Shown here: positions 7,945 through 61,195 of the stretch, one piece after another
How the letters are laid out: every line of letters begins with the position of its first letter
Position numbering within the stretch: position 1 is the stretch's first letter
Source: a virus
Virus record (IMG/VR): IMGVR_UViG_3300044946_000175
Span: 1-64,000 of that record
Direction: 5' to 3' (one strand)
Length of the DNA stretch: 64,000 nt
Translations under genes and position numbers: made by a program
The notes under the pieces: model-generated
Database searches by the model: none
What the model saw: the letters and a program-made list of their open reading frames with translations, nothing else
Told to the model about the DNA's origin: nothing

Positions 7945-7976
7945 GAGAGCCCCAATCCTATGACTGGGGCTCTTTC
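7945..7976 (+). terminator. Hairpin upstream of the portal gene
   Basis: gagagcccca...tggggctcttt stem followed by a T-rich tract. Confidence 0.45.
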
Positions 7977-8031
7977 ATTTCTGCTGAATTTTGATACACT
8001 ATTCCAGTTCAAAGTCCACCGGAATAGTGTC

Positions 8032-15388: not shown

Positions 15389-15505
15389 CATGACAAGATG
15401 TAACAGTCTGGTCACCATGAGATTGATCCTCTCAATGGGAACCTGGAACCGAACGCAACGATGTTCCAGGTTTGATCTTTGCGTTTGATTCCAGGCTTTT
15501 TATTT
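15389..15505 (+). ncRNA. Candidate structured leader RNA with an H-type pseudoknot
   Basis: 10-bp stem aacctggaac/gttccaggtt (15440-15472) whose loop cgaacgcaa pairs with ttgcgtttg (15479-15487); two further hairpins upstream. Confidence 0.4.
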
Positions 15506-18002
15506 GTTTCTGGAATCGAACGTGCGGACGAAAATCAAATCATCGATCTATTCACAACGTCGCACACAGCGCCAGCCGACTCTCTACCGACGCAATGGCA
15601 GTACTACCAATTACACTGGTCCGGACGCCACGCTTGATTTTTTGCAAACTCTTAACGATCCTCGTCGTTGGATAAAGCGTCCTGGCGTTCCCATTTTCAA
15701 ATGCCATCGTCGAATTGATCCGACAACCGGCAAAGAAATCGTTGTCGATGAGGTGAAGCTCTACGAAATCGCCCGCAATCTTCAGCGGATGCAGAAGCAG
15801 GGCGTTCCGATCCGCATGACATTGGGGCATACAGAACCGACCAAAGCTGAACCGCACCAACCGCCACTGGCCGGATTTTATGTGAATGCTCGCGTGGCTC
15901 CATTCGGACCACAACAAGAACCGGCAATTGTGGCGGACGAGTTGCTCGATCCGACTCACGCTCAAATACGCAAAAACTTTCCTTATCGTTCGAGTGAATA
16001 CTACGACGATGATAAGAGCATTACAGGTGTCGCTCTTTTGGCCCGCGATCCTTACCTGGATCTGGGCGTCGTCAGTTACTCCAAGAGCGTGAAGCTGCCG
16101 CTTAATTATCAACGACGTGACGGATCGTTCCCGGTGGTTTATCGGTATTCGATGGGCGATGGGAGACGTCGCGCCTACAGACAAGTCCGTCGTCCCGCTC
16201 GCTATTCGAGGAGAGGAAACACAATGCCAGCGCCACGACAACGACCTCAACCACAGCCGATGCATTCGTGGTTGCCGCAGTACAACCAACCGCTGCCGCC
16301 AACATCGCAAACCGGTTTGCCCATCGGCACTCCTTACGGTTACAGACCGCAGCCAGGCACCATGTACTCCGCGCCGTGGCCGCGTGATGGCGGATCGACT
16401 TACAGTCCTGGACAGCGGATTCCGCACAGTCACCGCGATGCGCCCAACCCACAGACGTACGCGGATTATGCCGGACCTCGTGGTGGACCGACGGGCCGGA
16501 TGCCGATGGGTCCGCGATCTTCTGGCAGTGCGCGGATAGGACAGAGGCATGTGGCCGCTTCGATCAATCCTCACATTCAGTCTCACATGCCGCGACCGGC
16601 CACTCCGATGCCCGGAATGCGCGGCTCTCTGCACCAAGCTCCCCGTCCAACTCAAAGTTCCCGCCAACCGCGATACGCGCGATACGCGGATGAACTGGAC
16701 GAGGAGGAATTCGGTGCAGGCGAAGACGCTGGTTTTGAGGCTGGTGAAGAAGCCGGTTTCGCTGGCGGTGAGATGGCAGGTGAAGAGATGATGGGTGGTG
16801 GAATGCCAATGGGAGGTATGGGCGAAGATGCCGGTATCGAATCCGTCCTGCAAAACCTGGAAATGGCCATTGAGGGTCTACAGGAGGTTCTCGGTGGTGG
16901 AGAGGAGTTTCCAGAGGCCGGAGCCGAAGGATTAGGGCCACCAAACACGCCGTTTCCGGAAGAGGAAGTGGAAGAAGAGGAATTTCCCACTCCTGCATCG
17001 CGTTATCGGCAGAACGCGCAGCGTCCGGCCCGATACGCCGAACATCCGCGTTACGAATCTCACACACCCTCTCCTTATTCCCAACTGACCCACGCCCGTC
17101 AACGCGACGTTCGCACTGATCGTGGCCAGCATCGTTACCAGAACCCGGAGAATCCCATGCGATATGGCTCGCCATCACCATCGCGAGTGACGTATGATCG
17201 CCGACTCGCTCAGATGAATTACGAGCTACAGCAGAATAGCTACGCGCTGGAGCAACAGCGGCGCGTGAATGAACTGCTGCTCTACGAGCGAGATCAGGCC
17301 GACCTTGCCGCGTGTGAAGCAGAGATCAGCCGTCTCGCCGGGATGGGCTATCTGGTGGACGATTACGAAGTCGAAGAACTTCGCAGAAAGCCGTTCCACG
17401 AGCGGGGTCACTACATCGCCTACATCATGGATCGGATTCAGAAGATCGGCACAGAACAACTCCCACCAGTACTCGGTGACCCGACGCCTGGACCGACGCC
17501 GGACATGAGCTATCCGCTGACCAAGGAGGAGATGCAGGAAGTGCTGGCTATCACCGGCAACAATCGTGATCCTGCTCACTACAAGCGGGCCGTGGAGATG
17601 GTGCGATACCAGCGCGCCCAGGGCGGTCAAGGTCAGGCTCCGATTCCCCAGAACCGACTGCCGATGCAGTACCAGGCACCGGCACCGCAGTATCCGGCTG
17701 GTCCGGCCTATCGGCCTCCGGCTCCGGAATTCGATCCGTACGACTCGCGAGCTTACCAAGGACTGACGCATTCAGCCGAATACGAAAATCAGTTCGCTCC
17801 CGGTTACGGCGATGTGCCTCCCGAGCAGTACCAGCCGACCATGTACGGACAGGTTCCGGAACCTGATCCACGACAGCAAGGATTCGATGAGTACACGCCG
17901 CCTCCCGGCTCGCGTTTGAGCCGTAGTCCCTATCCAGAAGGTGGAATGGGCGGAATGGACCTGTCGGAATTCGGTCAGCCGAACGATAACTCGGGCTGGT
18001 AG
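15504..18002 (+). CDS. Prohead protease (Mu gpI-like) fused to a long low-complexity scaffold
   Basis: 'MTLGHT', 'AIVADELL', 'FPYRSSEYY', 'ITGVALLARDPYLDLG' His/Ser motifs; coiled-coil C-terminal half; upstream of MCP; start may be GTG 15522. Confidence 0.75.
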   Translation: MFLESNVRTKIKSSIYSQRRTQRQPTLYRRNGSTTNYTGPDATLDFLQTLNDPRRWIKRPGVPIFKCHRRIDPTTGKEIVVDEVKLYEIARNLQRMQKQGVPIRMTLGHTEPTKAEPHQPPLAGFYVNARVAPFGPQQEPAIVADELLDPTHAQIRKNFPYRSSEYYDDDKSITGVALLARDPYLDLGVVSYSKSVKLPLNYQRRDGSFPVVYRYSMGDGRRRAYRQVRRPARYSRRGNTMPAPRQRPQPQPMHSWLPQYNQPLPPTSQTGLPIGTPYGYRPQPGTMYSAPWPRDGGSTYSPGQRIPHSHRDAPNPQTYADYAGPRGGPTGRMPMGPRSSGSARIGQRHVAASINPHIQSHMPRPATPMPGMRGSLHQAPRPTQSSRQPRYARYADELDEEEFGAGEDAGFEAGEEAGFAGGEMAGEEMMGGGMPMGGMGEDAGIESVLQNLEMAIEGLQEVLGGGEEFPEAGAEGLGPPNTPFPEEEVEEEEFPTPASRYRQNAQRPARYAEHPRYESHTPSPYSQLTHARQRDVRTDRGQHRYQNPENPMRYGSPSPSRVTYDRRLAQMNYELQQNSYALEQQRRVNELLLYERDQADLAACEAEISRLAGMGYLVDDYEVEELRRKPFHERGHYIAYIMDRIQKIGTEQLPPVLGDPTPGPTPDMSYPLTKEEMQEVLAITGNNRDPAHYKRAVEMVRYQRAQGGQGQAPIPQNRLPMQYQAPAPQYPAGPAYRPPAPEFDPYDSRAYQGLTHSAEYENQFAPGYGDVPPEQYQPTMYGQVPEPDPRQQGFDEYTPPPGSRLSRSPYPEGGMGGMDLSEFGQPNDNSGW

Positions 18003-18119
18003 CATTCCAACTAAAGACAAAATTTGAAATTGCTTTTTAACTCGCGCGGAGAGTTTGACATGCTGCTCATATCGATCTTGTTGGTACTGTTGCTGGTAGC
18101 GGGTCTATTTCTTGGAATC

Positions 18120-18590
18120 ATGGACTCCGACTGGGATTTCAACTTCAGTCCGTCTGGTAATATCTATCCCTCTCGATTTGTCATGCTCGACAGCACGACG
18201 CAGGGGGGTTGTTTCATGGGTGGACTCAACGCCATGTGCGTTGGCGCTACTCCACAAGCAACGGAGTTTGCGCCAGGACAGCTTGGTAATACCCAACCAC
18301 CCTACGTCTATGCGGTGGGGACCGATCCAAACCTGCCTCCTGGATCGCAATCTCGCGTGGGGGTCTACGGACCCGGACGCAACTGTCTGGTGGACGTCGA
18401 TCCGGCCTTTGCCGGTCAGATCAAGCCGGGATCTTTGATCGTCTGCTCCAACTCAGGATTCGCTACACTCGCATCACCGTTTGGACCTTGGAATCAATGG
18501 ATTGCTGGAATCTCCAGAAGTTTTGCCAATGGCGGTCAGACGGTGAACGTGAAACTGGTGATCTTTCCTTGGTCTCCCACGGGTTCGTAA
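18120..18590 (+). CDS. Capsid decoration/cement protein
   Basis: 'GNIYPSRFVML..VGVYGPG..IKPGSLI.CSNSGFA..AGIS...ANGGQTVNV' pattern; between protease and MCP. Confidence 0.65.
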   Translation: MDSDWDFNFSPSGNIYPSRFVMLDSTTQGGCFMGGLNAMCVGATPQATEFAPGQLGNTQPPYVYAVGTDPNLPPGSQSRVGVYGPGRNCLVDVDPAFAGQIKPGSLIVCSNSGFATLASPFGPWNQWIAGISRSFANGGQTVNVKLVIFPWSPTGS

Positions 18591-18650
18591 TTCTTCCGCG
18601 AAGTGAAGACAAGTATACATTTAGTCTTTTCTTGTTGATGGAGTTTCGCC

Positions 18651-20189
18651 ATGCCTCCGACAATGATTCAGCCCGGTTTCAACGTCCAACACCGTCACGC
18701 TCGCGCCGTGCCGACGATGTATGCCGCGCCCGGTTCCATCGATCCTCGCAGCATTCCCCGTCCGCAGCTTCCGGCACCCAATCCGGCGCTTGGTGAGCGG
18801 ATGCGTCAACGCCGTTGGCAGGAGCGAGAGCGAGAGACGTACTACCAGCTTCGGCACGCGCCGATGCCGCACCAGTACACCCAAGACCGACCACATCTTG
18901 AATATGGCGGCGGTTCGGGCGACCCTCGTACTCAGTTTCTTCCGCAAGGTCCGCCCACGGGATTCCAGGCTCGTGGTCTGAATCAGTCGTACATCGACGC
19001 TGGCGGACGTGCGCCAACCGTATACTCCGATCCCCGTGCGCTCGTGGCTCGTGCGTCTCGTCCCACCTATGCCTACAATCGCGTTCTAGGTGTACAGAAA
19101 TCGCCGACCATGTACGCCGGTCTGGGAACGTGGCCCAATCAGTACTTTCCTGGTGGTTCCAATACGTACATCGCTTCCTACGAAGCGACTGGTCTGCTCC
19201 TCAAGTACACGCGAAACCCGACGTTCTTCCGCATCAACCGCTATCTCAAAGAGATGACGGTCAAGAACGACATGGGTTACTATCTGACGCTCGATGGTGA
19301 CTCTCCTTACCGCGTGCTTTCCATCAATGACTATCTCTGGGAAGATGGCGTGGACGCTCCCGGTGGCCGTCAAGAACGGCAGGGATTCGCATTCCAGCCA
19401 TACCGCACCACTCGGTACACTTTCCCGTTTTCTTTGGGCAGGAAGGGCGTGCAGCAGGCGGTATGGGCAATCGTGGCTGAACATGCCGCGATGCAGGCTG
19501 CGAAGGCCATGACGGTACGGACGTTGATCATGGTGAATTTGATCAATGCTGCCGCAAACTGGACCGGTCCCGGTTTCACGAACACATCCGCTGCTTCCGG
19601 CGCATGGTCCACGCAGGGAGGGGCTTCGGTTAATCCGATTCCTTACCTGCAAAACGACATCAACACGGCATTAATCGGTGTTGAGCAAGCAACTGGTGGC
19701 ATCGTCACGGATGAGGAAGCACTGACCTTTACCATGAATCCGCAGGAAGGTCGAAAGGTATCGGCTGCCGACGAGTACCGTGGATACATCAAGGGTTCTC
19801 CTGACGCTCTCGCTGCCATTACCGATCAGAGAAATCCGAACCGCAAGTACGGACTGGCTCCGTTCATCTACGGCTTGCGACTGGTGATCGAGAATGCAAT
19901 CGTGGTGACGACACCCAAGTCCGCCAATGTCGCTTCGCCAGCCGCGCAGTCGAGGTCGTACATCTGGCCGCAGGCGATTGCCATGATCGCTTCCAGGCCG
20001 CAGGGGATCGTTGCACCAGAAGAACAAACGTTGGACTTTTCGACAATTTGTGCCCGCTTCTATGAAAATCAGACCGTAGAAACCAAGTCCGATCCAGATC
20101 AACGCCGGGAAATGGGTCGTGTTGTGGAGGACTATTGCCTGTCGCTTTCGGCCCCGCAGACCGGGTGGCTTTTCACCGGAGCTAGCTGA
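18651..20189 (+). CDS. Major capsid protein (HK97-fold by inference) with a ~160-aa Pro/Arg/Tyr-rich propeptide
   Basis: Synteny after protease and decoration gene; 'LTFTMNP', 'GLAPFIYGLRLVIE', 'RVVEDY....APQTGWLF'; ~350-aa core. Confidence 0.8.
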   Translation: MPPTMIQPGFNVQHRHARAVPTMYAAPGSIDPRSIPRPQLPAPNPALGERMRQRRWQERERETYYQLRHAPMPHQYTQDRPHLEYGGGSGDPRTQFLPQGPPTGFQARGLNQSYIDAGGRAPTVYSDPRALVARASRPTYAYNRVLGVQKSPTMYAGLGTWPNQYFPGGSNTYIASYEATGLLLKYTRNPTFFRINRYLKEMTVKNDMGYYLTLDGDSPYRVLSINDYLWEDGVDAPGGRQERQGFAFQPYRTTRYTFPFSLGRKGVQQAVWAIVAEHAAMQAAKAMTVRTLIMVNLINAAANWTGPGFTNTSAASGAWSTQGGASVNPIPYLQNDINTALIGVEQATGGIVTDEEALTFTMNPQEGRKVSAADEYRGYIKGSPDALAAITDQRNPNRKYGLAPFIYGLRLVIENAIVVTTPKSANVASPAAQSRSYIWPQAIAMIASRPQGIVAPEEQTLDFSTICARFYENQTVETKSDPDQRREMGRVVEDYCLSLSAPQTGWLFTGAS

Positions 20190-20306
20190 ACAAAGAGAAG
20201 AATTCAAATTGCTTGACTCTTGTCTAGCTTTTGGTAAAAATAACAAGCCATGTCCTCGTAAGACATGGCTTGTTTCACATACCAACTCTATACTGGAGAG
20301 TCAGTC

Positions 20307-21125
20307 ATGCTCGACGTTGATTTTACACATCCGAACAATCGCTGGACATTAATCGGACCAGGAAGCAGAAAAGGATATGTGAAGGTTCAGTGTTCATGTC
20401 CAGACAAAACGATCAAGGAAATTTACGTCTATGACATCAATAAAGGCAAATCTCTTTCTTGTGGTTGTCTTCGTAAAGAAGTGATGAGTGAGACAAAAAG
20501 AACACACGGGATGTCGAAAACGGCAATCTACAATACTTGGTGTCTAATCATCAGAAGAACGGAAAACGAAGACGATCTCAGATGGGAGGATTACGGTGCT
20601 CGTGGAATTAAGATGTGTGCGAAGTGGCGAGAATCCTTTGAGGCATTTTATGCTGATATGGGAGATCCGCCGTCCGATGAGTATACCATTAATCGAATCG
20701 ATAATGATGGAAATTACGAACCGGGAAATTGTCATTGGGCAACTGATTCGGAGCAACAAAACAACAAACGTAACAACCGACTGATCGAATGGAATGGCCG
20801 CACTCAAACGATGGTTCAGTGGGAGCGTGAACTGGGTTTTCGGGAAGGCACGCTCAAGAATCGGCTCGATCAAAACAACTGGACTGTCGAGCGGGCGATG
20901 ACGACTCCGGTAAGGACAAAGAAGAAAATCACATACAATGGAAAGACGCAGGCCATCGATGAATGGGCTGAGGAGTACGGACTGACTCCCGCGATGCTGC
21001 GATCTCGGTTAAATCTAGGAATTCCATTCGAGACTGCTATAGCAACTCCTGCCTATCATTGGAAAGGCAGAGGAAATCCGATTCCGAGAGAAGCAGAAGA
21101 AGGCGAATCATGCCACAAGAAATGA
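20307..21125 (+). CDS. Free-standing HNH homing endonuclease with C-terminal DNA-binding repeats
   Basis: 'SCGC', 'YGARGIKMCAKW..SFEAFYADMG', 'TINRIDNDGNYEPGNCHWAT..EQQNNKR'; GGAG 8 nt before ATG 20307. Confidence 0.85.
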   Translation: MLDVDFTHPNNRWTLIGPGSRKGYVKVQCSCPDKTIKEIYVYDINKGKSLSCGCLRKEVMSETKRTHGMSKTAIYNTWCLIIRRTENEDDLRWEDYGARGIKMCAKWRESFEAFYADMGDPPSDEYTINRIDNDGNYEPGNCHWATDSEQQNNKRNNRLIEWNGRTQTMVQWERELGFREGTLKNRLDQNNWTVERAMTTPVRTKKKITYNGKTQAIDEWAEEYGLTPAMLRSRLNLGIPFETAIATPAYHWKGRGNPIPREAEEGESCHKK

Positions 21126-21442
21126 AAGGCCGAAGAATCCCCGTCGTCGATCCGATGGCCGATCCTTATGACTTGCTTAAAGAGCCGGGGGATTATTATG
21201 GACCGACGATGTTTTGTGGCTATTTGTCAGTTTGGTACATACTTCCAAATGCAAAAGATGATCCACGAGCAATCGGATTGCATCACTGCAAGATCGACCC
21301 TCCGCAGTTTCATTCGTTGATTGAAGAGTCGGATGGAACTCTGACCCTTCGAAATTCCATCGGAGCAGGCCCACCTAACTACTACTGGCATGGATTTTTG
21401 AATCAGGGTGATTGGATGCTGACACAGAGGGATAAAAAGTGA
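21110..21442 (+). CDS. Hypothetical protein (DUF6527-like motif)
   Basis: 'DGTLTLRNSI....YWHGFLNQGDW' C-terminal motif. Confidence 0.45.
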   Translation: MPQEMKGRRIPVVDPMADPYDLLKEPGDYYGPTMFCGYLSVWYILPNAKDDPRAIGLHHCKIDPPQFHSLIEESDGTLTLRNSIGAGPPNYYWHGFLNQGDWMLTQRDKK

Positions 21443-22287
21443 ACATCGATCAAGCACGAGACGGCGGATCGAGTATCGCGGATGAGCCGCCAGCGGAGCC
21501 GTACGTCCCGAACGAAGAGGCCACTACACTCTTGCGGAAGTACGCCGCCAATCCAACGTTTTATCGAATCAATAAGTACGCCGCGTCCACCCGTGTTGAC
21601 AGGCTGACTGAAACGCAAAAGCAGTTCGTGCCAGAGACTACTCGGTACATGTACTACTTCGGTCTTCCGCGAGTCAATAAAAGTGACATTGCCGTGGCTG
21701 AGTACGCCGCGATGCAGGTCGCAAAAGCAATGACAGCGCGGACCATGTTTGCCGTGGATACGCTAAGTTGCCGGTCGCTGTGGGGAAGTGCGGCAAGGTA
21801 CAAGTTTCCAAAGACAAAAGAGGAATGGGAATTCTTTTTGGAGGTGTGGGCAGGTCGAAATAAGTCGCTAGACCGCGAGAACTTCGTGTTGGTGATGAAT
21901 CCCACTCGGGCGAGCGATTGGGCGCAGTCCAAAGAAGTAGTCGAATGGCTCAATAGTGGTGTCGGTCAACGCATGGCAGATGTAATGGATCAGAGAAATC
22001 CGAACCGCAAGTATGGGCTTCACTCGCGACCATTCGGTATCAAGACGGTTGTCGAGAATGCAATTAAGGTCGATCTCGAAATCGAACCCAAACGCCAATA
22101 CGTCTGGCCGAGAGAACTCTGCTGCGTGCTTTACGTTCCGCACGAGCATGGTGATCCGTTCGACGCCACACTTCGGATGAGCATGGAAGAAGAAATGACA
22201 GTTGAGCAGAAGAGCGACAGAGGCAGAGTTGTTGAGGACTACTCGTTCATCGCTCCGAATTCCAGGACTGGTTGTTTGTTAGTGTGA
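21439..22287 (+). CDS. Internally deleted paralog of the major capsid protein
   Basis: Collinear with 18651-20189: EAT.LL.KY..NPTF.RIN.Y, TTRY, VAE.AAMQ.AKAMT.RT, MNP, DQRNPNRKYGL, ENAI.V, Y.WP, GRVVEDY. Confidence 0.9.
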   Translation: MNIDQARDGGSSIADEPPAEPYVPNEEATTLLRKYAANPTFYRINKYAASTRVDRLTETQKQFVPETTRYMYYFGLPRVNKSDIAVAEYAAMQVAKAMTARTMFAVDTLSCRSLWGSAARYKFPKTKEEWEFFLEVWAGRNKSLDRENFVLVMNPTRASDWAQSKEVVEWLNSGVGQRMADVMDQRNPNRKYGLHSRPFGIKTVVENAIKVDLEIEPKRQYVWPRELCCVLYVPHEHGDPFDATLRMSMEEEMTVEQKSDRGRVVEDYSFIAPNSRTGCLLV

Positions 22288-22322
22288 AAGACAAAACAAG
22301 AAATCCAAACTAAGGAGAATTT

Positions 22323-22610
22323 ATGTCTGAGGAACCAACCAGAACGAAGATCGTGATTTTTAACTATCCTGCTGGTAACGAGTTGGCCAAAAAACAGCAG
22401 ACAGAAAATGCTGCGATGCTCGTCGATTGCATGACCATCGCGTGCCCTCGCGATCCGCAGGGAAACTGGCCAGCGGTTGAGGAGGTTGTTGCAATAGAGA
22501 TCAGCGACATTCGATTGACGGCGGCAATCGAAGTGTTGAAACTTGGTAAGGCAGAGGAGAGGTTGCGAAAAGAAGCCCTTGACGTGGTTGTGGGGTATTT
22601 GAAAGGCTGA
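22323..22610 (+). CDS. Small protein carrying a fragment of the portal protein
   Basis: IFNYPAGNELAKKQQTENA...CPRDPQGNWPAVE vs portal VFNYPAGNEAARLQQIANA...CPRNPQGNWPAIE; AAGGAG RBS. Confidence 0.85.
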   Translation: MSEEPTRTKIVIFNYPAGNELAKKQQTENAAMLVDCMTIACPRDPQGNWPAVEEVVAIEISDIRLTAAIEVLKLGKAEERLRKEALDVVVGYLKG

Positions 22611-22621
22611 AAAGATAAATC

Positions 22622-22783
22622 ATGACCAGAAATCCCAAATATGCTGCTGTTTTAGCGATTCTTCAGCTTGTCTTGGGGATTTATTTGCTGGACGCAGGAA
22701 AGACTTTGTTGGGAGGTTTTACGATGTGGTGCTGCGGAGTGAACACAGTGCTTATGATTAATACACAACCAAAAACGACGTAG
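22622..22783 (+). CDS. Small membrane protein (53 aa, below the ORF-track cutoff)
   Basis: MTRNPKYAAVLAILQLVLGIYLL...; stop codon abuts the next ATG. Confidence 0.5.
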   Translation: MTRNPKYAAVLAILQLVLGIYLLDAGKTLLGGFTMWCCGVNTVLMINTQPKTT

Positions 22784-23155
22784 ATGTTGTATCTTTTTAC
22801 CACCGCTGCCGAACTTGCCAAGTCGCGTTCACGCCCGACTGTGGGCATTATGATCCATCTCGACACGGGCAAGAAATATTTCTTTCCCTCTCCCACGACA
22901 GTCATTCAAGGACAGCCGGTTCCTGCATTTCTTGGGGGGATTTTAGCCGAGCAAGCACTGGGTCGCGAACTGATCGAACTGCCGAGCACGAAGATCGAAT
23001 ATGGTTTAAATGAGAAGGGTACTTGGACCTGTCTGAAGGTGCTGAAACATGCTATAACAGAAGAAGCACCGGCGGATCAGTCCGTGCCGGTATCGCCGAA
23101 AGAGCCCACTCCGGACGATTATGCTGCCGTGGCGGTGATAGGAAAAGACGGATGA
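22784..23155 (+). CDS. Hypothetical protein
   Basis: Translationally coupled on both sides. Confidence 0.6.
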   Translation: MLYLFTTAAELAKSRSRPTVGIMIHLDTGKKYFFPSPTTVIQGQPVPAFLGGILAEQALGRELIELPSTKIEYGLNEKGTWTCLKVLKHAITEEAPADQSVPVSPKEPTPDDYAAVAVIGKDG

Positions 23156-23673
23156 TTACCTACGAAGAATTTGAGCAATTGGTGACGAACGCTCAGCGCG
23201 CCCTGGACCAATTGAAGGAAGGTTTGGTGCAGTACAAGCCGCCACGTCCGACTGGCCCCTGCGCCGAAATCACCATTGACGAGAAACAACACGTATTTTT
23301 TGTCGAGTTCACGGATAATAAAGGGCCGTTTCTGAGACAGACATACGAAGGTGATTTTGCTTCTCCAGATCCTCCACTTCAGCCAGTCATGCAGACGATC
23401 ATGACTTCTGCTTTGATCTGGATAGAAAAACAATGTCCAGGAATCATGGAGGATAATGTCAGCGTGGTCTTGACGCAGAGACAGGCCAGATTGTATGGAC
23501 GATCCTTTGAAAATAAGGCACATATCAAAGGCGCACCGGATGCTTTGACTGCTGTTTGCGAGCAGAGGAATCCTCATCGGCGGTACTCGCTCTGTCCATT
23601 CCTTTACGGAATTCGGTTGCGGATCGAGAATCGGAAAGAAGAAGATCTTGTGGTATTGCAGGAGGTGGGATGA
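23152..23673 (+). CDS. Protein whose C-terminal half is a fragment of the MCP (putative A-domain)
   Basis: HIKGAPDALTAVCEQRNPHRRYSLCPFLYGIRLRIEN vs MCP YIKGSPDALAAITDQRNPNRKYGLAPFIYGLRLVIEN. Confidence 0.85.
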   Translation: MITYEEFEQLVTNAQRALDQLKEGLVQYKPPRPTGPCAEITIDEKQHVFFVEFTDNKGPFLRQTYEGDFASPDPPLQPVMQTIMTSALIWIEKQCPGIMEDNVSVVLTQRQARLYGRSFENKAHIKGAPDALTAVCEQRNPHRRYSLCPFLYGIRLRIENRKEEDLVVLQEVG

Positions 23674-24266
23674 TGTCGATACCCCAAACATCCAACTCCA
23701 GTCTCGTACCGTATGTTTCGGCGATCCAGACATTCGGTTTCTTCTCGCAAAAAGTCATAGCTGATATGCTGAAGGCAAACACTGATTCGCCTCGTCCTTC
23801 TTATCTAGCGTGTATTGATCCGAACAACTACTTTGGTCGGAAATGGTTGCAGCACATTGGATTCGGTGCCGGAGAAATTGAATCAGCGGTTGTCGTGGCT
23901 TCTCGGTACACACCAGCCGATCTTATGAATTTGACCGGCGTGAGCCAGATTCTACTTCAAGGCTTGAACGCAGCCAGGGCGCTATGGTCTGCCTACAAAA
24001 TTTTGAAACCTGGTACGGCTCGTCCTGAAGAATGTCCTGCTGCTCGTGAAAGTTTTGAGATGCTTACGCAGTTGAGAGATGGCGAAAAACTATTTAGCTT
24101 CCAAGAATCGGAAAAAGCAGGACTTGTTGCCGTGATTCCGCCTAATCCTTATGCCCTCGCGCCAGGGCAGTCTACAATTGTCCCTCGCCTGGTACGTCTC
24201 TTTCCCACATATGGTATCAATTCATTACTGAATCGTGGTGGTTACAATCGTGGCGGTGACTGCTAG
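23670..24266 (+). CDS. Head-tail adaptor (Mu gp36/DUF1320-like)
   Basis: 'GEIESAVVVASRYTPADL', 'SFEMLTQLRDGEKL'; GGAGG RBS; position after the capsid genes. Confidence 0.65.
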   Translation: MMSIPQTSNSSLVPYVSAIQTFGFFSQKVIADMLKANTDSPRPSYLACIDPNNYFGRKWLQHIGFGAGEIESAVVVASRYTPADLMNLTGVSQILLQGLNAARALWSAYKILKPGTARPEECPAARESFEMLTQLRDGEKLFSFQESEKAGLVAVIPPNPYALAPGQSTIVPRLVRLFPTYGINSLLNRGGYNRGGDC

Positions 24267-24850
24267 ATATGCGTCCAGATTTTTCTTTTAAGTATGTTGC
24301 AGATTAAAGCCGGACTCACGTTGTAATGTTCGGCTATCTGGCGTTGTGATACGAATTCACCAGCAGCATAGCAACGGCGGATTTCAAGGACGATGCTTTC
24401 GTCCAAAACAGCCATGTTGTTCTTGGCTCCGTTCTGATCTCGGTTATGTCCGTGAGACACACGATCATCGATGTTTTCTTGTTTAGTTCCCCAACGAAGA
24501 TTCTCGACTCGATTATTTTTGGCATCACCGTTCAGATGGCGACATTCCATGCTTTCTGGACGGGGACCAACAAAAGCAAATAAAACAAGATGATGGACTG
24601 AATATCGTTTGTGTTTTTTGTTTGGTCCGCATAAAGTCACACGGCAATGTCCATATGTGCTGCTTGGATCGGTAAGCAAATCGGACCAGTTATTATTGAG
24701 CAAGTTAGGGTTCGTAGTTCGGCGAGTTTGCACACTTCCATCATCTCCAACCCGATACCCCGAATAGCCCAGAAAATCCAGCGTCCGATAGCAAACGTCG
24801 GAAATTTCGTCGTAAAAGAACTGGTGGCTGGTAGAATTGACATCGAACAT
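24263..24850 (-). CDS. HNH homing endonuclease (NUMOD4/HNH_3-like with C-terminal HTH)
   Basis: 'GYRVGDDGSV', 'VHHLVLFAFVGPRP..MECRHLNGD..NNRVENLRWGT..EN'. Confidence 0.9.
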   Translation of the reverse strand: MFDVNSTSHQFFYDEISDVCYRTLDFLGYSGYRVGDDGSVQTRRTTNPNLLNNNWSDLLTDPSSTYGHCRVTLCGPNKKHKRYSVHHLVLFAFVGPRPESMECRHLNGDAKNNRVENLRWGTKQENIDDRVSHGHNRDQNGAKNNMAVLDESIVLEIRRCYAAGEFVSQRQIAEHYNVSPALICNILKRKIWTHI

Positions 24851-24977
24851 GGCCGTTTGCTCCTTTTAAGCAAGTGGTCGTGGCGGGTGGGAAGTGTCCA
24901 CTTCACTTCCTACCCGTTAGTTTATAAAACATGCTCTGTCAGACCAACGATTTGAACCTCTTTTTCAGGGGTTTTCC

Positions 24978-25595
24978 ATGACCGAACTCATCGACCGGCG
25001 AAAAGCAATCCAGGCAGTAGCATCTTCTGCTGTCGCTGCACTGATTCCCGTTTCAGAGTCCACTTCGGCTCAGTCCGAACCTCCGCACGTCGCGCCGGGT
25101 GAGTGCATTACCGCTTCTGTTGTCGTGACCGTGGTCGACAAGTGGGAGAAGAACAAAACCTCTCAGTTTCCGAATGGCTTTATCATTCCATCGGCAGTGA
25201 TTCGAAAAGCTCTGGATGACAAGCTCTTTGGTTCGGTCTGCATTCGCGCATCGAACCACATCAATGTAAAGAATGAATGCGATGCAGAGATTGTCGGTCA
25301 TGTCGCGGGTTGGCGATTTGTCGAATTTTTCGTCGGTTCGGATGGGAGCATTGTGCCGCTCAAAAACAAATGTCTTGTGGCTGACATCATCGTGCAAGCC
25401 AAGGCATTTATCGGCAAAGCCGTTCGCCTGTCCAGTTTCGATGTTTATGGTCCGGATGGTGTCTGCACGGAGATTCGCGGCGTGGACTGCGTGTTCTTGA
25501 CTGACAATCCGTGCTGGCCGGACGAAAAGATTCCTGAAGGCAAGTATGTCAATATTGGTGTGTGCAATGAAGGGGTTGACGTGCCACTCAAATAG
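24978..25595 (+). CDS. Divergent prohead-protease-like protein with a Tat-like N-terminus
   Basis: IDRRKAIQAVASSAVAAL; NH..IVGHV..CLVADII..RLSSFDVY..VFLTDNP parallels GH..LAGFY..AIVADEL..YRSSEYY..ALLARDP of 15504-18002. Confidence 0.5.
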   Translation: MTELIDRRKAIQAVASSAVAALIPVSESTSAQSEPPHVAPGECITASVVVTVVDKWEKNKTSQFPNGFIIPSAVIRKALDDKLFGSVCIRASNHINVKNECDAEIVGHVAGWRFVEFFVGSDGSIVPLKNKCLVADIIVQAKAFIGKAVRLSSFDVYGPDGVCTEIRGVDCVFLTDNPCWPDEKIPEGKYVNIGVCNEGVDVPLK

Positions 25596-25604
25596 AGGAA
25601 AGTC

Positions 25605-26153
25605 ATGCCAGCCGTAGAAACATTCCAATATCATGTTAATGGTCCCTGCATCCCACAATCACAGGTTGGGTCTGGGGGTGCATACGCCGCTCTGGGTGTC
25701 TGTGAAGAGGGCGTGGACATTGCTCTTCAGCAAGCGGTCCACGACATCAAGCACGATGGCGCTGGCGGACAGGACGGCTTTGAAGCAGAGAACATCATTC
25801 TCAACTCTGCCGTCACCGCAAGATTCTCGCTCGTGCCTTATGGTGGTGCCCTCATCAACACTCTGCGGGGATTCGCGCAGGGTCAGCCGTTCGACCTGCC
25901 GGACGGCATCATACCGCAGCCGGGTACTCTGTTCGGACTCAATAACCTCCTGCCGGGTTTGTACATCCCTACTTTCTTCGATTCTGACGGTCCTTGGACA
26001 TTTCTGAATTGTCGTGTGGTGAATCCAGGTAGCAATCGCGTATCGACCAAGGAATCCCGCCCGCAGTTTGAGTTTCGTAACTTCAATTACGTCGATCCGT
26101 CGATTGCTGCGACCATTCTCGGGAACGTTCTGTACAAGAGGGCCTCACCGTAG
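25605..26153 (+). CDS. Tail tube / major tail protein
   Basis: 'LGVCEEGVDI....HDIKHDG.GG'; beta-rich 182 aa; upstream of the frameshifting chaperone. Confidence 0.65.
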   Translation: MPAVETFQYHVNGPCIPQSQVGSGGAYAALGVCEEGVDIALQQAVHDIKHDGAGGQDGFEAENIILNSAVTARFSLVPYGGALINTLRGFAQGQPFDLPDGIIPQPGTLFGLNNLLPGLYIPTFFDSDGPWTFLNCRVVNPGSNRVSTKESRPQFEFRNFNYVDPSIAATILGNVLYKRASP

Positions 26154-26159
26154 ACTGAT

Positions 26160-27340
26160 GTTTATGCTAGAGGATAGCAGGTAAAATATCTTTGCAACTA
26201 AACGCTAGGTAGATGCTAAAACGTCTGTTGTTTTTGGGGCTGGTTTACGAACAGCCCAAGCACTCAAATTGAGCGCGGCGTTGAGATCGGCATTCACGGA
26301 GAGTCCGCAATGCATGCAGACAAACTCAGACTGATTCTTGCGATTTGTCTTTTCGCAGTGTCCACACTTGGAGCAGGCGCGGCTGCTGTTTCGTGGATCG
26401 ACGGCAACGACAGGCACGCCTGCCAGTCGAGCTTTGTACTCCACGAAAGTTCTGAGTTGTGCGAATGCCCAATTACCGAAACGACGACGAAATCTTCGGC
26501 CAACCGTATCCTCGATTCGGTTTCGGATTCCCTTGAGGTCTTCAAGAGCGATTCCCAATCGAAGTGTCTTTGCCTTTTCGACCAGTCGCTTGCTAATGTT
26601 ATGGTTTGTCCATGTTTGAAATCGACGCTGACGACCGGACATGGACTTCAACCGACGTTTTGCATTCTTGGTTCCTTTTCGTTGGTATTGTTTGCGAGCA
26701 GTCATCCGACGTTTGCGGTTTCGTTCGACACAAGTACCAGAGAATTGCTCTCCGGTGGAATCGGTGGCAATATTAGCAATTCCGAGATCGACTCCCAAGA
26801 AGTTTTTAATTTCCAATATTGGATCTTCGGGAATGTCGCATGTGGCAAACAAGAAGAATTTTCCATCTCGATAAACCAGATCTACTTGTCCTTTAAGGCG
26901 GGCAAGATTGGCTTTTTGATAATCACCGAAAATGTAAGGAACGAGAATGCGGCCATTCAAAGTCAAAATCGAAACTTTGTCGCATCCCTTCCACGACAGA
27001 ATTCGCTCATCGTATGTTATTCCTCCGGTAGATTTAAAAATTGGACAAATAGATCTGTCTCGCTTAAAACACTCAGCGGCTTTACCAATGGCACGAATAG
27101 CCATCTGAGCCGACAAGCCGAACCGCTCACGAAGTTCTCGGTAGCAGAGTTTTTGAATCGATGGAGCAGAAAACAAGCCAGCGTCGAATCCTGCTTTTGC
27201 GGCAAACGATGCAGCGGCATTGCATGCTCTCAATGTAACGAGCAAAAAAGAGGCCTGTTCGTCAGTAGGCAGCAGTCGAACTTGAACGGTTAGTTTCATG
27301 ATTGTATTATAGGGAGTGCCGGACTCCCTAACAATATCGA
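26160..27340 (-). mobile_element. Solo-TnpB (IS1341-like) element without tnpA
   Basis: Subterminal hairpin tagggagt-gccgg-actcccta at 27310-27330; antisense insertion in the tail operon; right boundary uncertain. Confidence 0.65.
26205..27299 (-). CDS. tnpB: TnpB RNA-guided endonuclease (IS200/IS605 family)
   Basis: RuvC motifs GVDLG, IALEDL, NADLNAA intact; zinc ribbon CSKC..CMHC; 'VDPRNSSR'. Confidence 0.95.
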   Translation of the reverse strand: MKLTVQVRLLPTDEQASFLLVTLRACNAAASFAAKAGFDAGLFSAPSIQKLCYRELRERFGLSAQMAIRAIGKAAECFKRDRSICPIFKSTGGITYDERILSWKGCDKVSILTLNGRILVPYIFGDYQKANLARLKGQVDLVYRDGKFFLFATCDIPEDPILEIKNFLGVDLGIANIATDSTGEQFSGTCVERNRKRRMTARKQYQRKGTKNAKRRLKSMSGRQRRFQTWTNHNISKRLVEKAKTLRLGIALEDLKGIRNRIEDTVGRRFRRRFGNWAFAQLRTFVEYKARLAGVPVVAVDPRNSSRACSKCGHCEKTNRKNQSEFVCMHCGLSVNADLNAALNLSAWAVRKPAPKTTDVLAST

Positions 27341-27364
27341 TTATGCCGATTTTGGGAGTTCACC

Positions 27365-28108
27365 GTGATAATCGTCCACATCACCAAACCGAGTGGAGTT
27401 GCTTTTGAAATCACATTCAAGGACGGCACGCCGGAACCGAAGATCCTGGCTAGTATCACCAAGAATCGGCAGATGTACGGGCGCGTCGGGACGATCAAGA
27501 GGACCGATCCGACTTTTGGCAGGGAAACCGAATACGATGATCCGAACGCCCCGTGGGCACTGGATCATCCCGAGACATGCATTGATATCGGTATGGAAGG
27601 TCCAGGACGCACGTTTGTTGTCACCAAGAGACTCAAAGGTCCGCCGCTGAAGAAGCTGGAAGCGACGAAAGACGCACCTCTACCATCTCCACCAACAGAA
27701 GCGCCGAAAACAACGTCGCCGGAACCGACTACGTTAAGATAAAAAAGCAAAATAAAAATGGATGCAACTCAAGAACAGCTTCGATATCCATATGTTCCAA
27801 AAAAATGTCTTGGCGGTCCTATTGAATTCTGCTTAAAAACAGGCAATCCGAAACTTCGTTATTTGTTTTTTGATATGGATGAAGCATCCCACTTAAAACA
27901 ACCTGTAGATGAGTGGCCGTGTGCTCTCGATGGCGAACCGCATACGCCGGGATCGGTGACGGAACGTGGAATAGTTCCCGACAATGAGCGAAATCGCACA
28001 CGTTATCAGACCCTACTGCGAAAATTCTTCGATTCGAAAATTGAGGCAACTTTACAAGTAGTCCTCACTGAAATTCGAGCAGTAAAGAAGCATCTAGGTA
28101 TTGATTGA
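27365..28108 (+). other. Two hypothetical CDSs (27365-27742, 27758-28108)
   Basis: Co-oriented ORFs in the tail region. Confidence 0.55.
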
Positions 28109-34334: not shown

Positions 34335-34400
34335 TCTGTTATTGTAGGATCTAGTAGATAAAAGGCAATTTTATTTTTGTCTTTTTATAATGGTGCGGTT

Positions 34401-36527
34401 TTGTCTTGGAATTTCGTTCAATCGTCGAGCGATCAATTCGGAAGCGTCTCCACGACACAGACGCTTCCATACAACACCAATGTGACCGTTGGTGATCTAC
34501 TCATCGTTGATATTGGATTCACTTCCGGAATCTCTTTTGGCCCTCCGTCTGTAGCCGATTCTCAGGGCAATGTTTACGTAAGGACAGGATTTGAGCACGA
34601 TATCGGAAATACCATCGGGATTGCACAATACGTTGCCATCGCAAAAGCCACGGGAGCCAACACAGTATCGGTCACACCAACGACGACGACTCTTCTGACG
34701 TTTGCGATTCACGAATACAGCGGTAATGCAACTTCTGGTGTAATCGATATGCCAGAAACCAATACCGGAACTGCGGCCACGACGCTCACCACGGGCTCTA
34801 TTCCGGTCAACAATCCTGGGGAGATGATCCACGCTGCCTTTGCGCAGATTACGAGTTCACAAACTCCAACACAGGGAGCGGGCTTTACGATTCGGGAAGA
34901 TCAGACGGGTACACTATCTCAGATTGCTCTGTTCACCGAAGATGATTTTCCTGTCTCGACCGCCACTGCCGCGACAGCTACCGTTTCTCTGGGGGTGACC
35001 TATGTGGCTATCGGCACGTCTTTCTTACCGACAGGTCTGACCCCACCACCAGACTTGTCCGTCACTCAAGCGCAAGTACGTACTGTTCCCAACAAAATCT
35101 ATGTTAATGTTCCGCCTTCCGCGAACGATGTATCTATTCCGCCTCCTCCACCTCAGCCAGAAACAAATGTCAACTTCGTGGCGAGGGGCTACAAACCGAC
35201 GGTCATTACAAATGAAACGAGGCCGATATATTCGTTCATCCCGCAGGATATATCGACCATTCCAGAAACAAATGTCAACTTCGTGGCGAGGGGGTATAAA
35301 CAGACTAATCTTTTGCCTTCTCAGTCGTTTGCTCCGCACGACCAAACCATAATACCGAACGAGGCCGACACGAGTCTGACAATCATCGGGTATCATCCGA
35401 CTAGTCTCACGAGGCCAGTGCCGTCGTTCGCGCCAGAGGACCAGACGACTGTTCAAGAAACAAATGTCAATCTTGTGGTTCGTGGCTACCACCCAACTTC
35501 GATTTGGTCAGTGCCTCCGTTCGCGCCGCACGACCAGTCAAACGAGGCAGGTCCGAATTTCGTGGCGCGGGGCTACCATTCGGCTCCGATCTTATTCGCG
35601 CCTCCGTTCGCGCCTCACGATCAATTACCCGAAGAAAACCCACACCTGACCGTACGGGGTTACAAACCGACCAGTCTTACCAGGCCAGTCCCGTCGTTTG
35701 CCTATGAAGACATCCCGTTTTATCCCGAGATCGACTTCGTGGCGAGGGGCTACCGCCAGACCACGATCTGGTCGGTGCTTCCGACTGCTCCACACAATCA
35801 GTCGAATGAAGCAGCTACGAGCGAGACAGTACGCGGCTATCAAGCGACTAATCTTACGAGGCCGGTGCCTTCCTTCACTTCTGAAGATCAGACTACTGCG
35901 CAAGAGACGAACATCGACTTCGTGGCGCGGGGATACCATTCAATCACGATTCAGTCGGTGCTTTCATCCGCTCACGAAGATCATTCAAACGAGGAGAATC
36001 CGCACTTAGTCGTGCGGGGTTACAAGCCCACAACCATTACCAGACCAGTTCCATCGTTTTCTTATACAGACATCCCGTTCTATCCGGAAATCGACTTCGT
36101 GGCGCGTGGATATCAGCCTCCTCGCATCAACATGCCGACTGTGTTCGAAAACCAAACCGTCGTACCGACAGAGGCCAATACCAGTGAAATCGTAAGAGGC
36201 TATCAATCAACTAATCTCAATCGACCGTTTGCTTCCAAGGATGTGACTGCCTATCCAGAAACGATTGTCAACTTCACGGCAAAAGGCTACCAGCCGACCA
36301 GTCTCAACAAACCGGTGCCTTCATTCGCGCCTCACGATCAATCGGCGACTCCGAGTGAGGCCAACACGAGTCAAGTTGTTCTCGGTTATCAACCGACCAG
36401 TTTTAATATGCCGGTATCTCCATTTGCTCCCCAAGACCTGTCCTTTGTACCGACTATAGGGGCTTACGTTCTGCCAATCTTTGTATCATTAGTGGGTCTA
36501 AGAAGCTATCTGTCAAAGGATTCTTGA
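34401..36527 (+). CDS. Fibre/adhesin-like virion protein: beta-sandwich head + 14 repeats of ~30-35 aa
   Basis: 'VTVGDLLIV..SVADSQGNVY..IHEYSG' head; repeat ETN(V/I)NFVARGY.PT....PSFAP.DQ; TTG start at 34401 preferred. Confidence 0.7.
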   Translation: MSWNFVQSSSDQFGSVSTTQTLPYNTNVTVGDLLIVDIGFTSGISFGPPSVADSQGNVYVRTGFEHDIGNTIGIAQYVAIAKATGANTVSVTPTTTTLLTFAIHEYSGNATSGVIDMPETNTGTAATTLTTGSIPVNNPGEMIHAAFAQITSSQTPTQGAGFTIREDQTGTLSQIALFTEDDFPVSTATAATATVSLGVTYVAIGTSFLPTGLTPPPDLSVTQAQVRTVPNKIYVNVPPSANDVSIPPPPPQPETNVNFVARGYKPTVITNETRPIYSFIPQDISTIPETNVNFVARGYKQTNLLPSQSFAPHDQTIIPNEADTSLTIIGYHPTSLTRPVPSFAPEDQTTVQETNVNLVVRGYHPTSIWSVPPFAPHDQSNEAGPNFVARGYHSAPILFAPPFAPHDQLPEENPHLTVRGYKPTSLTRPVPSFAYEDIPFYPEIDFVARGYRQTTIWSVLPTAPHNQSNEAATSETVRGYQATNLTRPVPSFTSEDQTTAQETNIDFVARGYHSITIQSVLSSAHEDHSNEENPHLVVRGYKPTTITRPVPSFSYTDIPFYPEIDFVARGYQPPRINMPTVFENQTVVPTEANTSEIVRGYQSTNLNRPFASKDVTAYPETIVNFTAKGYQPTSLNKPVPSFAPHDQSATPSEANTSQVVLGYQPTSFNMPVSPFAPQDLSFVPTIGAYVLPIFVSLVGLRSYLSKDS
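35155..36450 (+). repeat. 14 imperfect ~90-105 bp coding repeats
   Basis: Recurring 'ttcgtggcg(a/c)g(g/t)gg.ta' and 'gttcgcgcc' blocks. Confidence 0.85.
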
Positions 36528-38132: not shown

Positions 38133-38735
38133 TTATGTGACATGCTTCCATCTGGCCCGCGTCACAGCGCCTCGTACTGCACCAAATGGTTTATTATATT
38201 TTCTACAAATCTGAGTAATCATAGCTCCACTATCGTATTCGATTCGCATAATTCGAACCAGGTCTTCCGTTAGTACGGCATTTCCATTACCTTCTCCGCG
38301 ACTGCTTGTTCCGTGTTTTATTTTGTCTGCTGCATTGCCTTGCGGTGTATCCCATCTGAGATTGGATAATTTATTGTTTTGCTGATCGCCATCGTTATGG
38401 CATCCTTCCATTCCAAGCGGACGAGGGCCAACGAACGCTTCAAGAACTAGACAATGAACGAGAATTTCCTTTCTGTAGTAATGGCGGTAAAGACCAAATA
38501 TTGAATACGATTTGTTATTTAACCTTGATTTACGTCGTTTCCATACAGTTCCGACTATTAAGACTGATCCGCTTCCGTTACCTTTGCCTCTTTTGCCGTG
38601 ATATGAACAATTCCAAACCGATCCGTCATCCCCTACTCGATAGCCTGGAAATCCCATAAAATCCAGCTTGCGGTAACAAACATCGTTTTCAGGATCGCAA
38701 TGGAATTCTGGAATGCTAGAATAGCCGTCTGACAT
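38133..38735 (-). CDS. HNH homing endonuclease, paralog of 24263-24850
   Basis: 'DVCYRKLDFMGFPGYRVGDDGSV', 'VHCLVLEAFVGPRPLGMEGCHNDGD..NN.LSNLRW'; ATG 38735 has GGAG upstream. Confidence 0.9.
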   Translation of the reverse strand: MSDGYSSIPEFHCDPENDVCYRKLDFMGFPGYRVGDDGSVWNCSYHGKRGKGNGSGSVLIVGTVWKRRKSRLNNKSYSIFGLYRHYYRKEILVHCLVLEAFVGPRPLGMEGCHNDGDQQNNKLSNLRWDTPQGNAADKIKHGTSSRGEGNGNAVLTEDLVRIMRIEYDSGAMITQICRKYNKPFGAVRGAVTRARWKHVT

Positions 38736-38853
38736 GGCCTTTGCTCCAGTTAAGCAAGGTTGTGTGGGTGCGGGTGACAGGGGATCACCCGCACCCAAAT
38801 TTTATGAAACAGTCGGAGTGAGGAAAGTGCCGAGTCCTCCAGGCAACGCTTTA

Positions 38854-60511: not shown

Positions 60512-61195
60512 ATGGAACTTTCCGAGCAAGTCTGGTGGGAAGTAGAAGCCGACAACGGTAAGTGGGCAGGTCTGGTCGATCCGACCTGGATCACTTCCAC
60601 AGTGATTGCTCTGTGTCAGCAGATCGAAAAGAGTAAAGACGCCTCGCTCCTGCCGATCCTGGCCGATGCGCTCCATATGGATGCTGGTTGTGAGGATGCA
60701 CTGTTGTTGAAGTTCTTGCGCGAGAACGTGGTCATTAGAATCGCGAGTATAAATGGGCCAATGGGATCTTATAAATGTCGTAGAGATAAAGGCATGTCCC
60801 GCGAAGTCATCGCCAGTCAAATAGGCAAATTGAGTCGTTTTTTTGATGGTGGTGATCATGTGTTTATTGACGATTGGAAAGCTTACCAGGACGCCAAGCG
60901 AAAGCACTATCTCGCGCAGGAGCAGTGCAAAAACTATCTCACGAATCCAGACATCAAGGCCGCTCTCCTGGCGCTCCCTCATCCCCATCCGGCTTTTAGG
61001 CAAAGTAAGAAATGGTGGGATTATTGCTGCTGGTTTACTGAAAAGCGGCTCTATCCGACTCTGCTTCGCAAATTGAAGGAATTGATGAAGGAGAACAAGA
61101 GTTTTGCCGTAGTGGTTGAGGAATCGAAGCACGAGAGAGTCGCCACTGCTCCGCTTGTGTCTGGGCAGAGAGTGTTAGACTGGGATGATGTTTAG
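60512..61195 (+). CDS. Protein with a Planctomycete-type 'LPILADAL-x-DAGC' motif
   Basis: 'DPTWITSTVIALCQQI....LLPILADALHMDAGCED..LL.FLR'. Confidence 0.65.
   Translation: MELSEQVWWEVEADNGKWAGLVDPTWITSTVIALCQQIEKSKDASLLPILADALHMDAGCEDALLLKFLRENVVIRIASINGPMGSYKCRRDKGMSREVIASQIGKLSRFFDGGDHVFIDDWKAYQDAKRKHYLAQEQCKNYLTNPDIKAALLALPHPHPAFRQSKKWWDYCCWFTEKRLYPTLLRKLKELMKENKSFAVVVEESKHERVATAPLVSGQRVLDWDDV

Follow-up and report, generated by a model that had tools for sequence, protein, structure and literature searches.

Genes of the locus

We analysed a stretch of 64,000 nucleotides (nt), hereafter the window, which is the first 64 kb of the single-contig virus record IMGVR_UViG_3300044946_000175 (119,161 bases, free of N, G+C 0.50), and focused on a cluster of small open reading frames (ORFs) downstream of the gene for the major capsid protein (MCP). 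The record represents an uncultured phage of ~119 kb from soil. An earlier reading made from the letters alone (hereafter, the sequence-only reading) had described four ORFs of the cluster –F282, F95, F173, and F205– as truncated self-copies of the phage's own MCP, portal, and prohead protease. Three of these four resemblances were confirmed here, and the protease likeness of F205 was not. F282 is a compact MCP paralogue from an old and accessory family, and it may act on capsid assembly by imitating the surfaces through which capsid subunits meet. The genes and other features of the locus are listed in Table 1.

The window had zero DNA matches and zero protein matches in the named-phage collection, and almost none of its proteins matched the curated libraries. 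On sequence grounds, we accept the 512-amino-acid (aa) protein as the MCP because of its homologues, the capsid neighbours of its core in the Atlas, and its homology to the HK97-fold F282. We found 107 MCP homologues, of which many lie on 100-108-kb contigs, and the Atlas neighbours of the core (residues 165-512) include Phage_capsid_4 and Phage_cap_E clusters. The N-terminal extension (approximately the first 165 residues, 18651-19150) is rich in P, Y, R, and Q and is conserved across the long-type MCPs, whereas the 338-350-aa MCPs of more distant relatives do not have it. Sequence searches of the PDB with the MCP alone and with the MCP profile gave nothing meaningful. The MCP's own AlphaFold2 (AF2) model was poor, with a predicted local distance difference test score (pLDDT) of 39 from a 19-row alignment, and was excluded from the analysis.

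We compared 44 related loci, 12 of which hold a long-type MCP plus some downstream DNA (L001-L003 and nine others). The usual order in these relatives is portal ... g832 - g188 - MCP - g123 - g236 - g182, and homologues of g123 occupy the same place in L001, L003, L006, L009, L011, and L016. The interval from MCP to g236 is complete in nine relatives. A six-frame profile search of all loci found no extra MCP-like ORF there in eight of the nine. The ninth relative, L006, has two short MCP paralogues of 306 and 274 aa, flanking its g123 homologue on either side, and no portal piece. By comparison with this common order, the DNA between MCP and g123 (HNH 1, g127, F282, F95, and g53) and that between g123 and g236 (F173) are insertions in a variable hotspot. 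This hotspot sits in the late head operon, and the TnpB-like gene is a further mobile element at its border.

F282, F95, F173, and F205 are all open and in the same orientation, as the sequence-only reading had it, and the signals of translation that it pointed out are also there. The stop of g127 and the start of F282 overlap as GTGA, AAGGAG lies 8 nt 5' of the ATG of F95, and ATGA overlaps join g123 to F173 and F173 to g236. The G+C content at third codon positions (GC3) of F282 is 0.60, against 0.62 for the MCP. An assembly chimera, a concern that the sequence-only reading had raised against itself, is unlikely, because a single contig of run X1, possibly the source sample, spans 18000-27300 with 0 differences from the window and the pieces found in runs of two other studies are identical to it. 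Hence there was no variation from which to derive the ratio of nonsynonymous to synonymous polymorphism (pN/pS). Run X2 was uninformative, with 21421-22975 uncovered and no contig joining across. The runs listed for this region included none of RNA, which bears in neither direction on expression.

Table 1. Features of the head-gene region and the hotspot (positions in the window; HNH 1 and HNH 2 are the two homing endonuclease genes)
Feature	Position	Strand	Size	Description
Portal gene	7960-10890	+	976 aa	phrog_113, E 8.7e-13; 8896-9033 is the parent-like segment of F95
g832	15504-18002		832 aa	Presumed protease/scaffold gene, a label from the sequence-only reading
MCP	18651-20189	+	512 aa	Accepted as MCP on sequence grounds; N-terminal extension of ~165 aa, then HK97-type core
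Hairpin	20242-20274			15-bp stem; inverted repeat over the start codon (ATG) of HNH 1
HNH 1	20265-21125	+	286 aa	Homing endonuclease; phrog_3377, E 1.5e-65
g127	21110-21442	+		Small ORF; start uncertain, frame open from 21059; stop overlaps F282 start
F282	21439-22287	+		Compact MCP paralogue, HK97 fold confidently predicted
F95	22323-22610	+	95 aa	Residues 10-55 portal-like
g53	22622-22783	+	53 aa	Hydrophobic, membrane-protein-like sequence
g123	22784-23155	+		Small conserved core gene in its usual place between MCP and g236
F173	23152-23673	+	173 aa	Chimeric ORF with a piece of the MCP A-domain at residues 77-160
g236	23670-24266	+		Conserved head-region gene, next core gene past MCP; likely start ATG 23670
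HNH 2	24263-24850	-	195 aa	Homing endonuclease; Pfam HNH_3, E 8e-13
F205	24978-25595	+		Twin-arginine-like leader
g182	25605-26153	+		Conserved; comes after g236 in relatives
TnpB-like gene	26205-27299	-		Pfam Cas12f1-like_TNB, E 2.6e-22, and OrfB_IS605; between g182 and the next plus-strand genes

A family of compact capsid paralogues

The MCP likeness of F282, one of the claims of the sequence-only reading, was upheld. Residues 22-282 align with residues 173-509 of the MCP at 31% identity over 342 columns (E 5e-30), and the MCP-family profile matches F282 in three blocks (E 3e-33). The N-terminal extension is missing, MCP profile positions 186-226 are reduced to 7 residues, and ~18 residues, against ~50 in the MCP, separate the N-arm motif from the RY(C)FPF strand. 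We take the segment that is cut from ~50 to ~18 residues as the E-loop.

A word-based search with F282 returned no close relative. Neither F282 nor F95, F173, F205, or g123 matched Pfam, PHROGs, NCBIfam, or PADLOC (for F205, at E limits of 0.01 in PHROGs and 0.1 in NCBIfam and PADLOC). We then combined F282 with the two L006 ORFs in a family profile, which matched 52 proteins at E <= 0.001 among 1.84 billion representatives. Of the top 15 matches, 12 are 244-306 aa long; the remaining three comprise two true MCPs (339 and 496 aa) and a 206-aa fragment of the longer L006 ORF (p306). The resulting F282 family holds at least 17 very divergent proteins of 244-306 aa. The 16 members that were aligned with F282 share 19-36% identity with it and keep complete open frames throughout. 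Compared with the true MCPs, the family has derived characters: it is without the ~165-aa extension, retains a stump of the E-loop, and has three common deletions of 6-8 residues. It also has the motifs WPxDL and xT(L/I)RFxF, and the C-terminus often reads NPEFAFALTW.

In a 40-row tree, one branch separates the 17 paralogues from the 23 true MCPs, which cover the long, middle, and short types, with a support of 100 in the Shimodaira-Hasegawa-like approximate likelihood ratio test (SH-aLRT). P0113 is the row nearest to F282 (36% identity, support 98). When only three paralogues were included, in an earlier tree, they fell on the long-MCP side. Taken together, the two trees place the origin of the family deep, near the split of the MCP types. 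The approximately unbiased (AU) test rejected F282 as the sister of its own MCP (p 0.007), a constraint that costs 58 log-likelihood units. Both the tree and this test thus speak against recent copies of the phage's own genes, and F282 is not the truncated self-copy that the sequence-only reading saw in it. A copy from a distant short-MCP lineage was also considered and rejected, as both trees place F282 away from the short-MCP clade.

At one site, MCP and F282 are close also at the nucleotide level. MCP 19824-19855 and F282 21988-22019 are identical in 30 of 32 nt, over the DQRNPNRKYG motif, and have in common the Arg codon AGA, which none of 11 relatives' MCPs uses there. Overall, 46 of the 99 residues that are identical between the two proteins use the same codon, where 34.4 would be expected, including a run of 8 (P ~0.01, chosen post hoc). 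A local gene conversion between MCP and F282 is only hinted at by these figures, and a shared codon bias may explain them.

The end branches of the family measure 0.17-2.8 (at least 0.75 in 13 of the 17), against a median of 0.34. Divergence is fast and yet the frames stay open, which requires selection on the protein. In the related virus records G001-G003 (46-104 kb), the MCP was the sole match, and the F282 paralogue is therefore accessory; a shell-forming gene is expected in every related genome, and F282 is missing from these. On this sequence evidence, the family is old, accessory, patchy, fast evolving, and so far undescribed.

These results bear on another role that a second capsid-fold protein could have, that of an ordinary structural subunit at the penton or vertex or close to the portal. 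In phage T4, gp24 is a paralogue of gp23. The T4 literature describes gp24 as forming the pentamers at eleven vertices (PMC3012670). F282 would be comparable: it is an MCP paralogue, its gene lies in the head operon and resembles that of the MCP in GC3, and it is predicted to pack on the MCP (see below). Such a subunit should nevertheless be kept, whereas F282 is absent from G001-G003 and, at this locus, from eight of nine relatives, evolves several times faster than the MCP, is represented by two different copies in L006, and has nearly lost the E-loop. We consider a gp24-like role improbable. The comparison is limited: both gp24 and F282 are second capsid-fold proteins encoded beside the major one in a head gene cluster, but gp24 is a conserved component of T4-type heads, and the F282 family is missing in most relatives, evolves fast, and has two copies in L006.

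Predicted fold and docking on the MCP

AF2 modelled F282 with confidence (61-row alignment, pLDDT 92.7, predicted template modelling score, pTM, of 0.88). Foldseek against the PDB gave 103 matches at E <= 0.001, among them 3bjq, with a template modelling (TM) score of 0.62-0.66, encapsulins, and the capsids of NF5, YSD1, PhiM1, T5, and Che8. In BFVD, the named matches were nearly all capsid or head proteins. We are confident in assigning the HK97 fold, with its N-arm, spine helix, P-domain sheet, and A-domain, to this model. One view of the sequence-only reading, namely that the ORFs are genuine genes derived from head proteins and not decaying duplicates, is supported, and for F282 strongly so, by the family of at least 17 members along with the fold.

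We then predicted the complex of F282 with MCP residues 160-512, together with three controls. The complex scored 0.66 (0.66, 0.70, and 0.64 in the separate runs) against 0.00 for the best control, on a scale where 58 of 80 solved complexes reach the score mark but only 2 of 110 mismatched pairs do. At least 75% of the contacts are common to the runs, and the pLDDT of the partner is at least 79. In the prediction, MCP residues 210-230 –in the segment that F282 is missing, the putative E-loop– rest on residues 68-104 of F282, a stretch that takes in the spine helix, and the A-domains of the two proteins pack together. The most confident contacts include the DQRNPNRKYG motif of F282 (184-193). 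According to Hawkins et al. 2021 (PMC8569155), E-loops of HK97-type capsids overlap the spine helix of the adjacent subunit, and the predicted contacts are of this capsomer-neighbour type. MCP and F282 are identical at 35 of the 52 predicted interface residues, as compared to 69 of 207 residues elsewhere (Fisher p 1e-5), and conservation within the family is also slightly higher at the interface (0.31 vs. 0.22, p 0.03).

If the docking is right, F282 would take the place of a capsomer neighbour on the MCP. It would accept the neighbour's E-loop on its spine helix, with the A-domains packed together, and could not donate an E-loop to the next subunit. Because it would accept an E-loop and not donate one, F282 may cap or otherwise alter the assembly of capsomers and of the shell. 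The target could be the phage's own shell or that of a co-infecting relative. Of the three roles that the sequence-only reading had offered, a dominant-negative or assembly-modulating one fits best with the predicted docking.

The other role that it had offered was that of immune decoys. MCP-like and portal-like proteins would titrate host sensors, such as Avs-type NTPases of the STAND class (signal transduction ATPases with numerous domains) or CapRel-type toxin-antitoxin fusions, without activating them, while the real head proteins accumulate. The genes are accessory, patchy, fast evolving, and co-transcribed with the MCP, as is typical of conflict genes, and a 2026 preprint (10.64898/2026.01.04.697583) reports that Avs proteins bind conserved core folds of MCP and other virion proteins; F282 keeps the core fold. 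However, retention of the core fold that sensors recognise would more likely make a protein set off the sensor than silence it. QRNPNRKY, proposed as an epitope, is kept in 6 of 16 aligned family members and lost in the other 10. The motif lies at the predicted subunit interface, so its conservation can be explained without a sensor. We found no phage-encoded capsid or portal decoy in the open-access literature searched, and PADLOC, which models defence and not counter-defence proteins, gave no match for the ORFs of the cluster. We regard a decoy function as unlikely.

Pieces of head proteins

F173 carries an MCP sub-domain, as the sequence-only reading had noticed. Its residues 78-160 align with MCP residues 331-415 at 42% identity (E 1e-20), and the 85 codons of the MCP-like stretch are free of stops and contain a single in-frame gap. 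It scores 73 bits against the true MCP profile and -1.2 bits against that of the short-paralogue family, so the piece derives from a true MCP, independently of F282. The same two scores rule out that F173 is a degraded relative of the short paralogues. The identity to its own MCP (42%) falls within that to relatives' MCPs (33-46% in alignments of at least 79 aa; 54% for L018, over 44 aa only), and F173 is thus about as distant from its own as from the others and is no self-copy. The piece, corresponding to MCP residues 325-415, includes both A-domain elements of the predicted F282-MCP interface. With the same contact elements, F173 may bind to the MCP much as F282 is predicted to.

The portal segment in F95 was also confirmed, with residues 10-55 matching the portal at 54% identity over 46 aa (E 1e-16; DNA 8896-9033). 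Here the closest sequence is indeed the phage's own portal, with 25 of 46 residues identical, as compared to 19 and 15 of 46 for the portals of two relatives. F95 had no relative among 5.8 billion proteins of 52-167 aa. A PDB sequence search with the portal core gave nothing meaningful, so the portal piece of F95 could not be placed on solved structures. From their sequences, F173 and F95 appear to be younger, lineage-specific ORFs.

F205 gave a different result, and the copy of the prohead protease that the sequence-only reading had suggested, as its weakest match, failed every test. Against g832, BLASTP returned E 4.5, and hhalign with a 6-row g832 profile a probability of 0.08%; F205 has nothing in Pfam at E <= 10. 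In addition, g832 itself was named a protease by none of the libraries searched. The sole internal likeness of F205 is that of its last 33 aa to the first residues of g182 (38%, E 8e-5 in a set of 14 proteins). It begins with a leader (24978-25080) that resembles twin-arginine translocation (Tat) signals. Its Atlas neighbours are Tat-signal proteins, all below 0.9, and this link is a lead only.

The accessory ORFs thus seem to derive from head proteins at different times. The sequence-only reading had put them forward as one system, but the parts differ in age, and they do not travel together: L006 has paralogues without the portal piece, and F95 is without relatives.

Homing endonucleases and a probable origin of the small ORFs

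The sequence-only reading had left out the two HNH genes inside the cluster and the TnpB-like gene nearby. Both HNH proteins have the HNH domain, and their presence or absence at the same site varies among relatives. Homologues of HNH 1 lie immediately 3' of the MCP in 4 of the 12 relatives (L008, L010, L016, and L018) and are absent there in the other eight. Homologues of HNH 2 are found immediately past g236 in L001 and L006, and another one past g469 in L003. In L003 (16805-17560), past a minus-strand HNH gene, the final ~31 residues of the neighbouring g469 homologue recur in a copy that has no start, with ~75% protein identity to the original and no blastn match. The window shows a parallel, since the end of F205, which resembles the start of g182, lies beside HNH 2.

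The small chimeric ORFs plausibly, and in our view probably, arose from recombination and repair around the homing endonucleases and would then have been kept in frame within a translationally coupled operon.

A more sceptical explanation is that the ORFs have no function at all: cuts by homing endonuclease genes (HEGs) followed by repair, or illegitimate recombination, would have duplicated pieces of head genes that persist because they are recent or harmless. The two HNH genes and the TnpB-like gene in or beside the cluster would fit this explanation, and so would the duplicated gene ends next to HNH genes (g469 in L003, F205/g182 in the window), the lack of database relatives of F95, and the eight of nine relatives without such an insert. 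Phage HEGs are also reported to cluster near essential genes, including capsid genes, by Barth et al. 2023 (PMC10448857). For F282, this origin is excluded by the at least 17 intact members with 19-36% identity, their core motifs, and the confident fold. F173 keeps 42% identity over 85 open codons and is joined by ATGA to both neighbours, and F95 has a consensus-like ribosome-binding site. Save for the 32-nt patch in F282, no piece shows close DNA similarity to the parent gene, so they are not recent. A six-frame search of 20150-27400 found no further out-of-frame MCP remnants. For F95 taken singly, functionless debris is possible; as an account of the cluster, we find this explanation doubtful.

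Proposed interface mimics and capsid assembly

The reading that we favour is that the locus is a variable hotspot in the head operon, holding accessory mimics of head-protein interfaces that alter or cap capsid assembly. We put its probability at roughly 0.45, somewhat short of even odds. Several points weigh against it. The docking score may reflect the model's memory of solved HK97 capsomers, and the test of interface identity has some circularity, as model confidence is highest at conserved sites and the spine helix belongs to the core of the fold. A cap that poisons the phage's own shell would be costly to the phage. As F173 and F95 have no relatives, selection on them rests on open frames and operon coupling. 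We found no endonuclease cut site or recombination junction. Of the 17 family members, only 3 have a known genomic context –the one in the window and the two in L006–, and a fourth context is no more than suggested for P0114, whose contig has the same length (28,283 bases) as that of the MCP P0086. Finally, P0119, a member from another metagenome, has a clear twin-arginine signal (SRRNWLQ, a hydrophobic stretch, and AIA), which fits poorly with a role in assembly in the cytoplasm and is explained by none of the readings.

Attempts to add contexts gave no match: a degenerate DNA pattern of the shared C-terminal motif searched against viral_contigs, and P0112 and P0119 as single queries, as well as the MCP alone.

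Among known systems, the closest analogue of F282 that we found is Ccm, a capsid homologue with the HK97 fold encoded by the staphylococcal satellite SaPIbov5, which fills pentamers and alters the shape and size of the capsid (Hawkins et al. 2021, PMC8569155). Both are extra HK97-fold capsid homologues that are dispensable for the normal capsid, and Ccm acts by joining the assembly, as F282 may do. In contrast, Ccm is encoded by a satellite and directed against the helper phage, whereas F282 lies in the phage's own head operon, with flanking core genes and stop/start overlaps. Moreover, Ccm keeps the delta domain, the N-arm, and a full E-loop, while F282 has no N-terminal extension and a stump of the E-loop.

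The hotspot also resembles the HEG islands of Barth et al. 2023 (PMC10448857). The islands have HNH genes present or absent at the same site, adjoin a capsid gene, and border on variable DNA, as seen here. What that work describes is an exchange of intact essential genes between endonuclease genes, whereas the hotspot holds truncated paralogues or pieces as separate ORFs. Neither phage-encoded MCP paralogues without an E-loop nor capsid or portal pieces as separate ORFs were found in the open-access literature searched.

Extra capsid-fold proteins are known in few settings –T4 gp24, Ccm, and encapsulins. The F282 family adds a phage-encoded accessory set, which has shed the parts that extend the shell (the N-terminal extension and the E-loop) and has kept the predicted contact surfaces. 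If F282 does cap or redirect assembly, it would be a new tool in conflicts between phages or between phage and host, and a natural design for inhibitors of HK97-type shells.

A broader proposal is that large phages repeatedly evolve and retain small mimics of head-protein interfaces, as a general and undescribed class of assembly antagonists or regulators. The class would take in compact capsid paralogues that lack an E-loop as well as free pieces of the A-domain and of the portal, and some of its members would carry export signals. It would sit in HEG-rich hotspots and serve in competition with co-infecting phages or counter the recognition of virion proteins by the host, with the F282 family as its first structurally defined member. 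So wide a generalisation is, in our estimate, unlikely to hold.

Neighbouring genes and other features of the record

The small ORF g127, just upstream of F282, had no family match in Pfam, PHROGs, NCBIfam, or PADLOC and no internal match. Similarly, g53 was unmatched in NCBIfam and PADLOC, and g236 in Pfam, PHROGs, and PADLOC. For g236, tblastn matches in many loci begin near residue 41 of the query, in line with the start given in Table 1. The hairpin at the start of HNH 1 may sequester the start codon of the endonuclease.

HNH 2 is one of four HNH_3 paralogues in the genome that are 28-41% identical, at 24263-24850 and 38133-38798 on the minus strand and at 67267-67815 and 88556-89119 on the plus strand. 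The block g832-g188-MCP (15504-20189) has a G+C of 0.53-0.58, above that of the genome (0.50) and of the HNH genes (0.45).

Other duplications in the record lie outside the hotspot. The 716-aa and 551-aa proteins (34377-36527 and 41532-43187) have internally repeated segments in common, which are 38-47% identical. A small set of paralogues is found at 60512-61195, at 62725-63021, and, past the window, at genome positions 64721-65692, which are 51% identical in an alignment of 57 aa and 34% identical in one of 65 aa.

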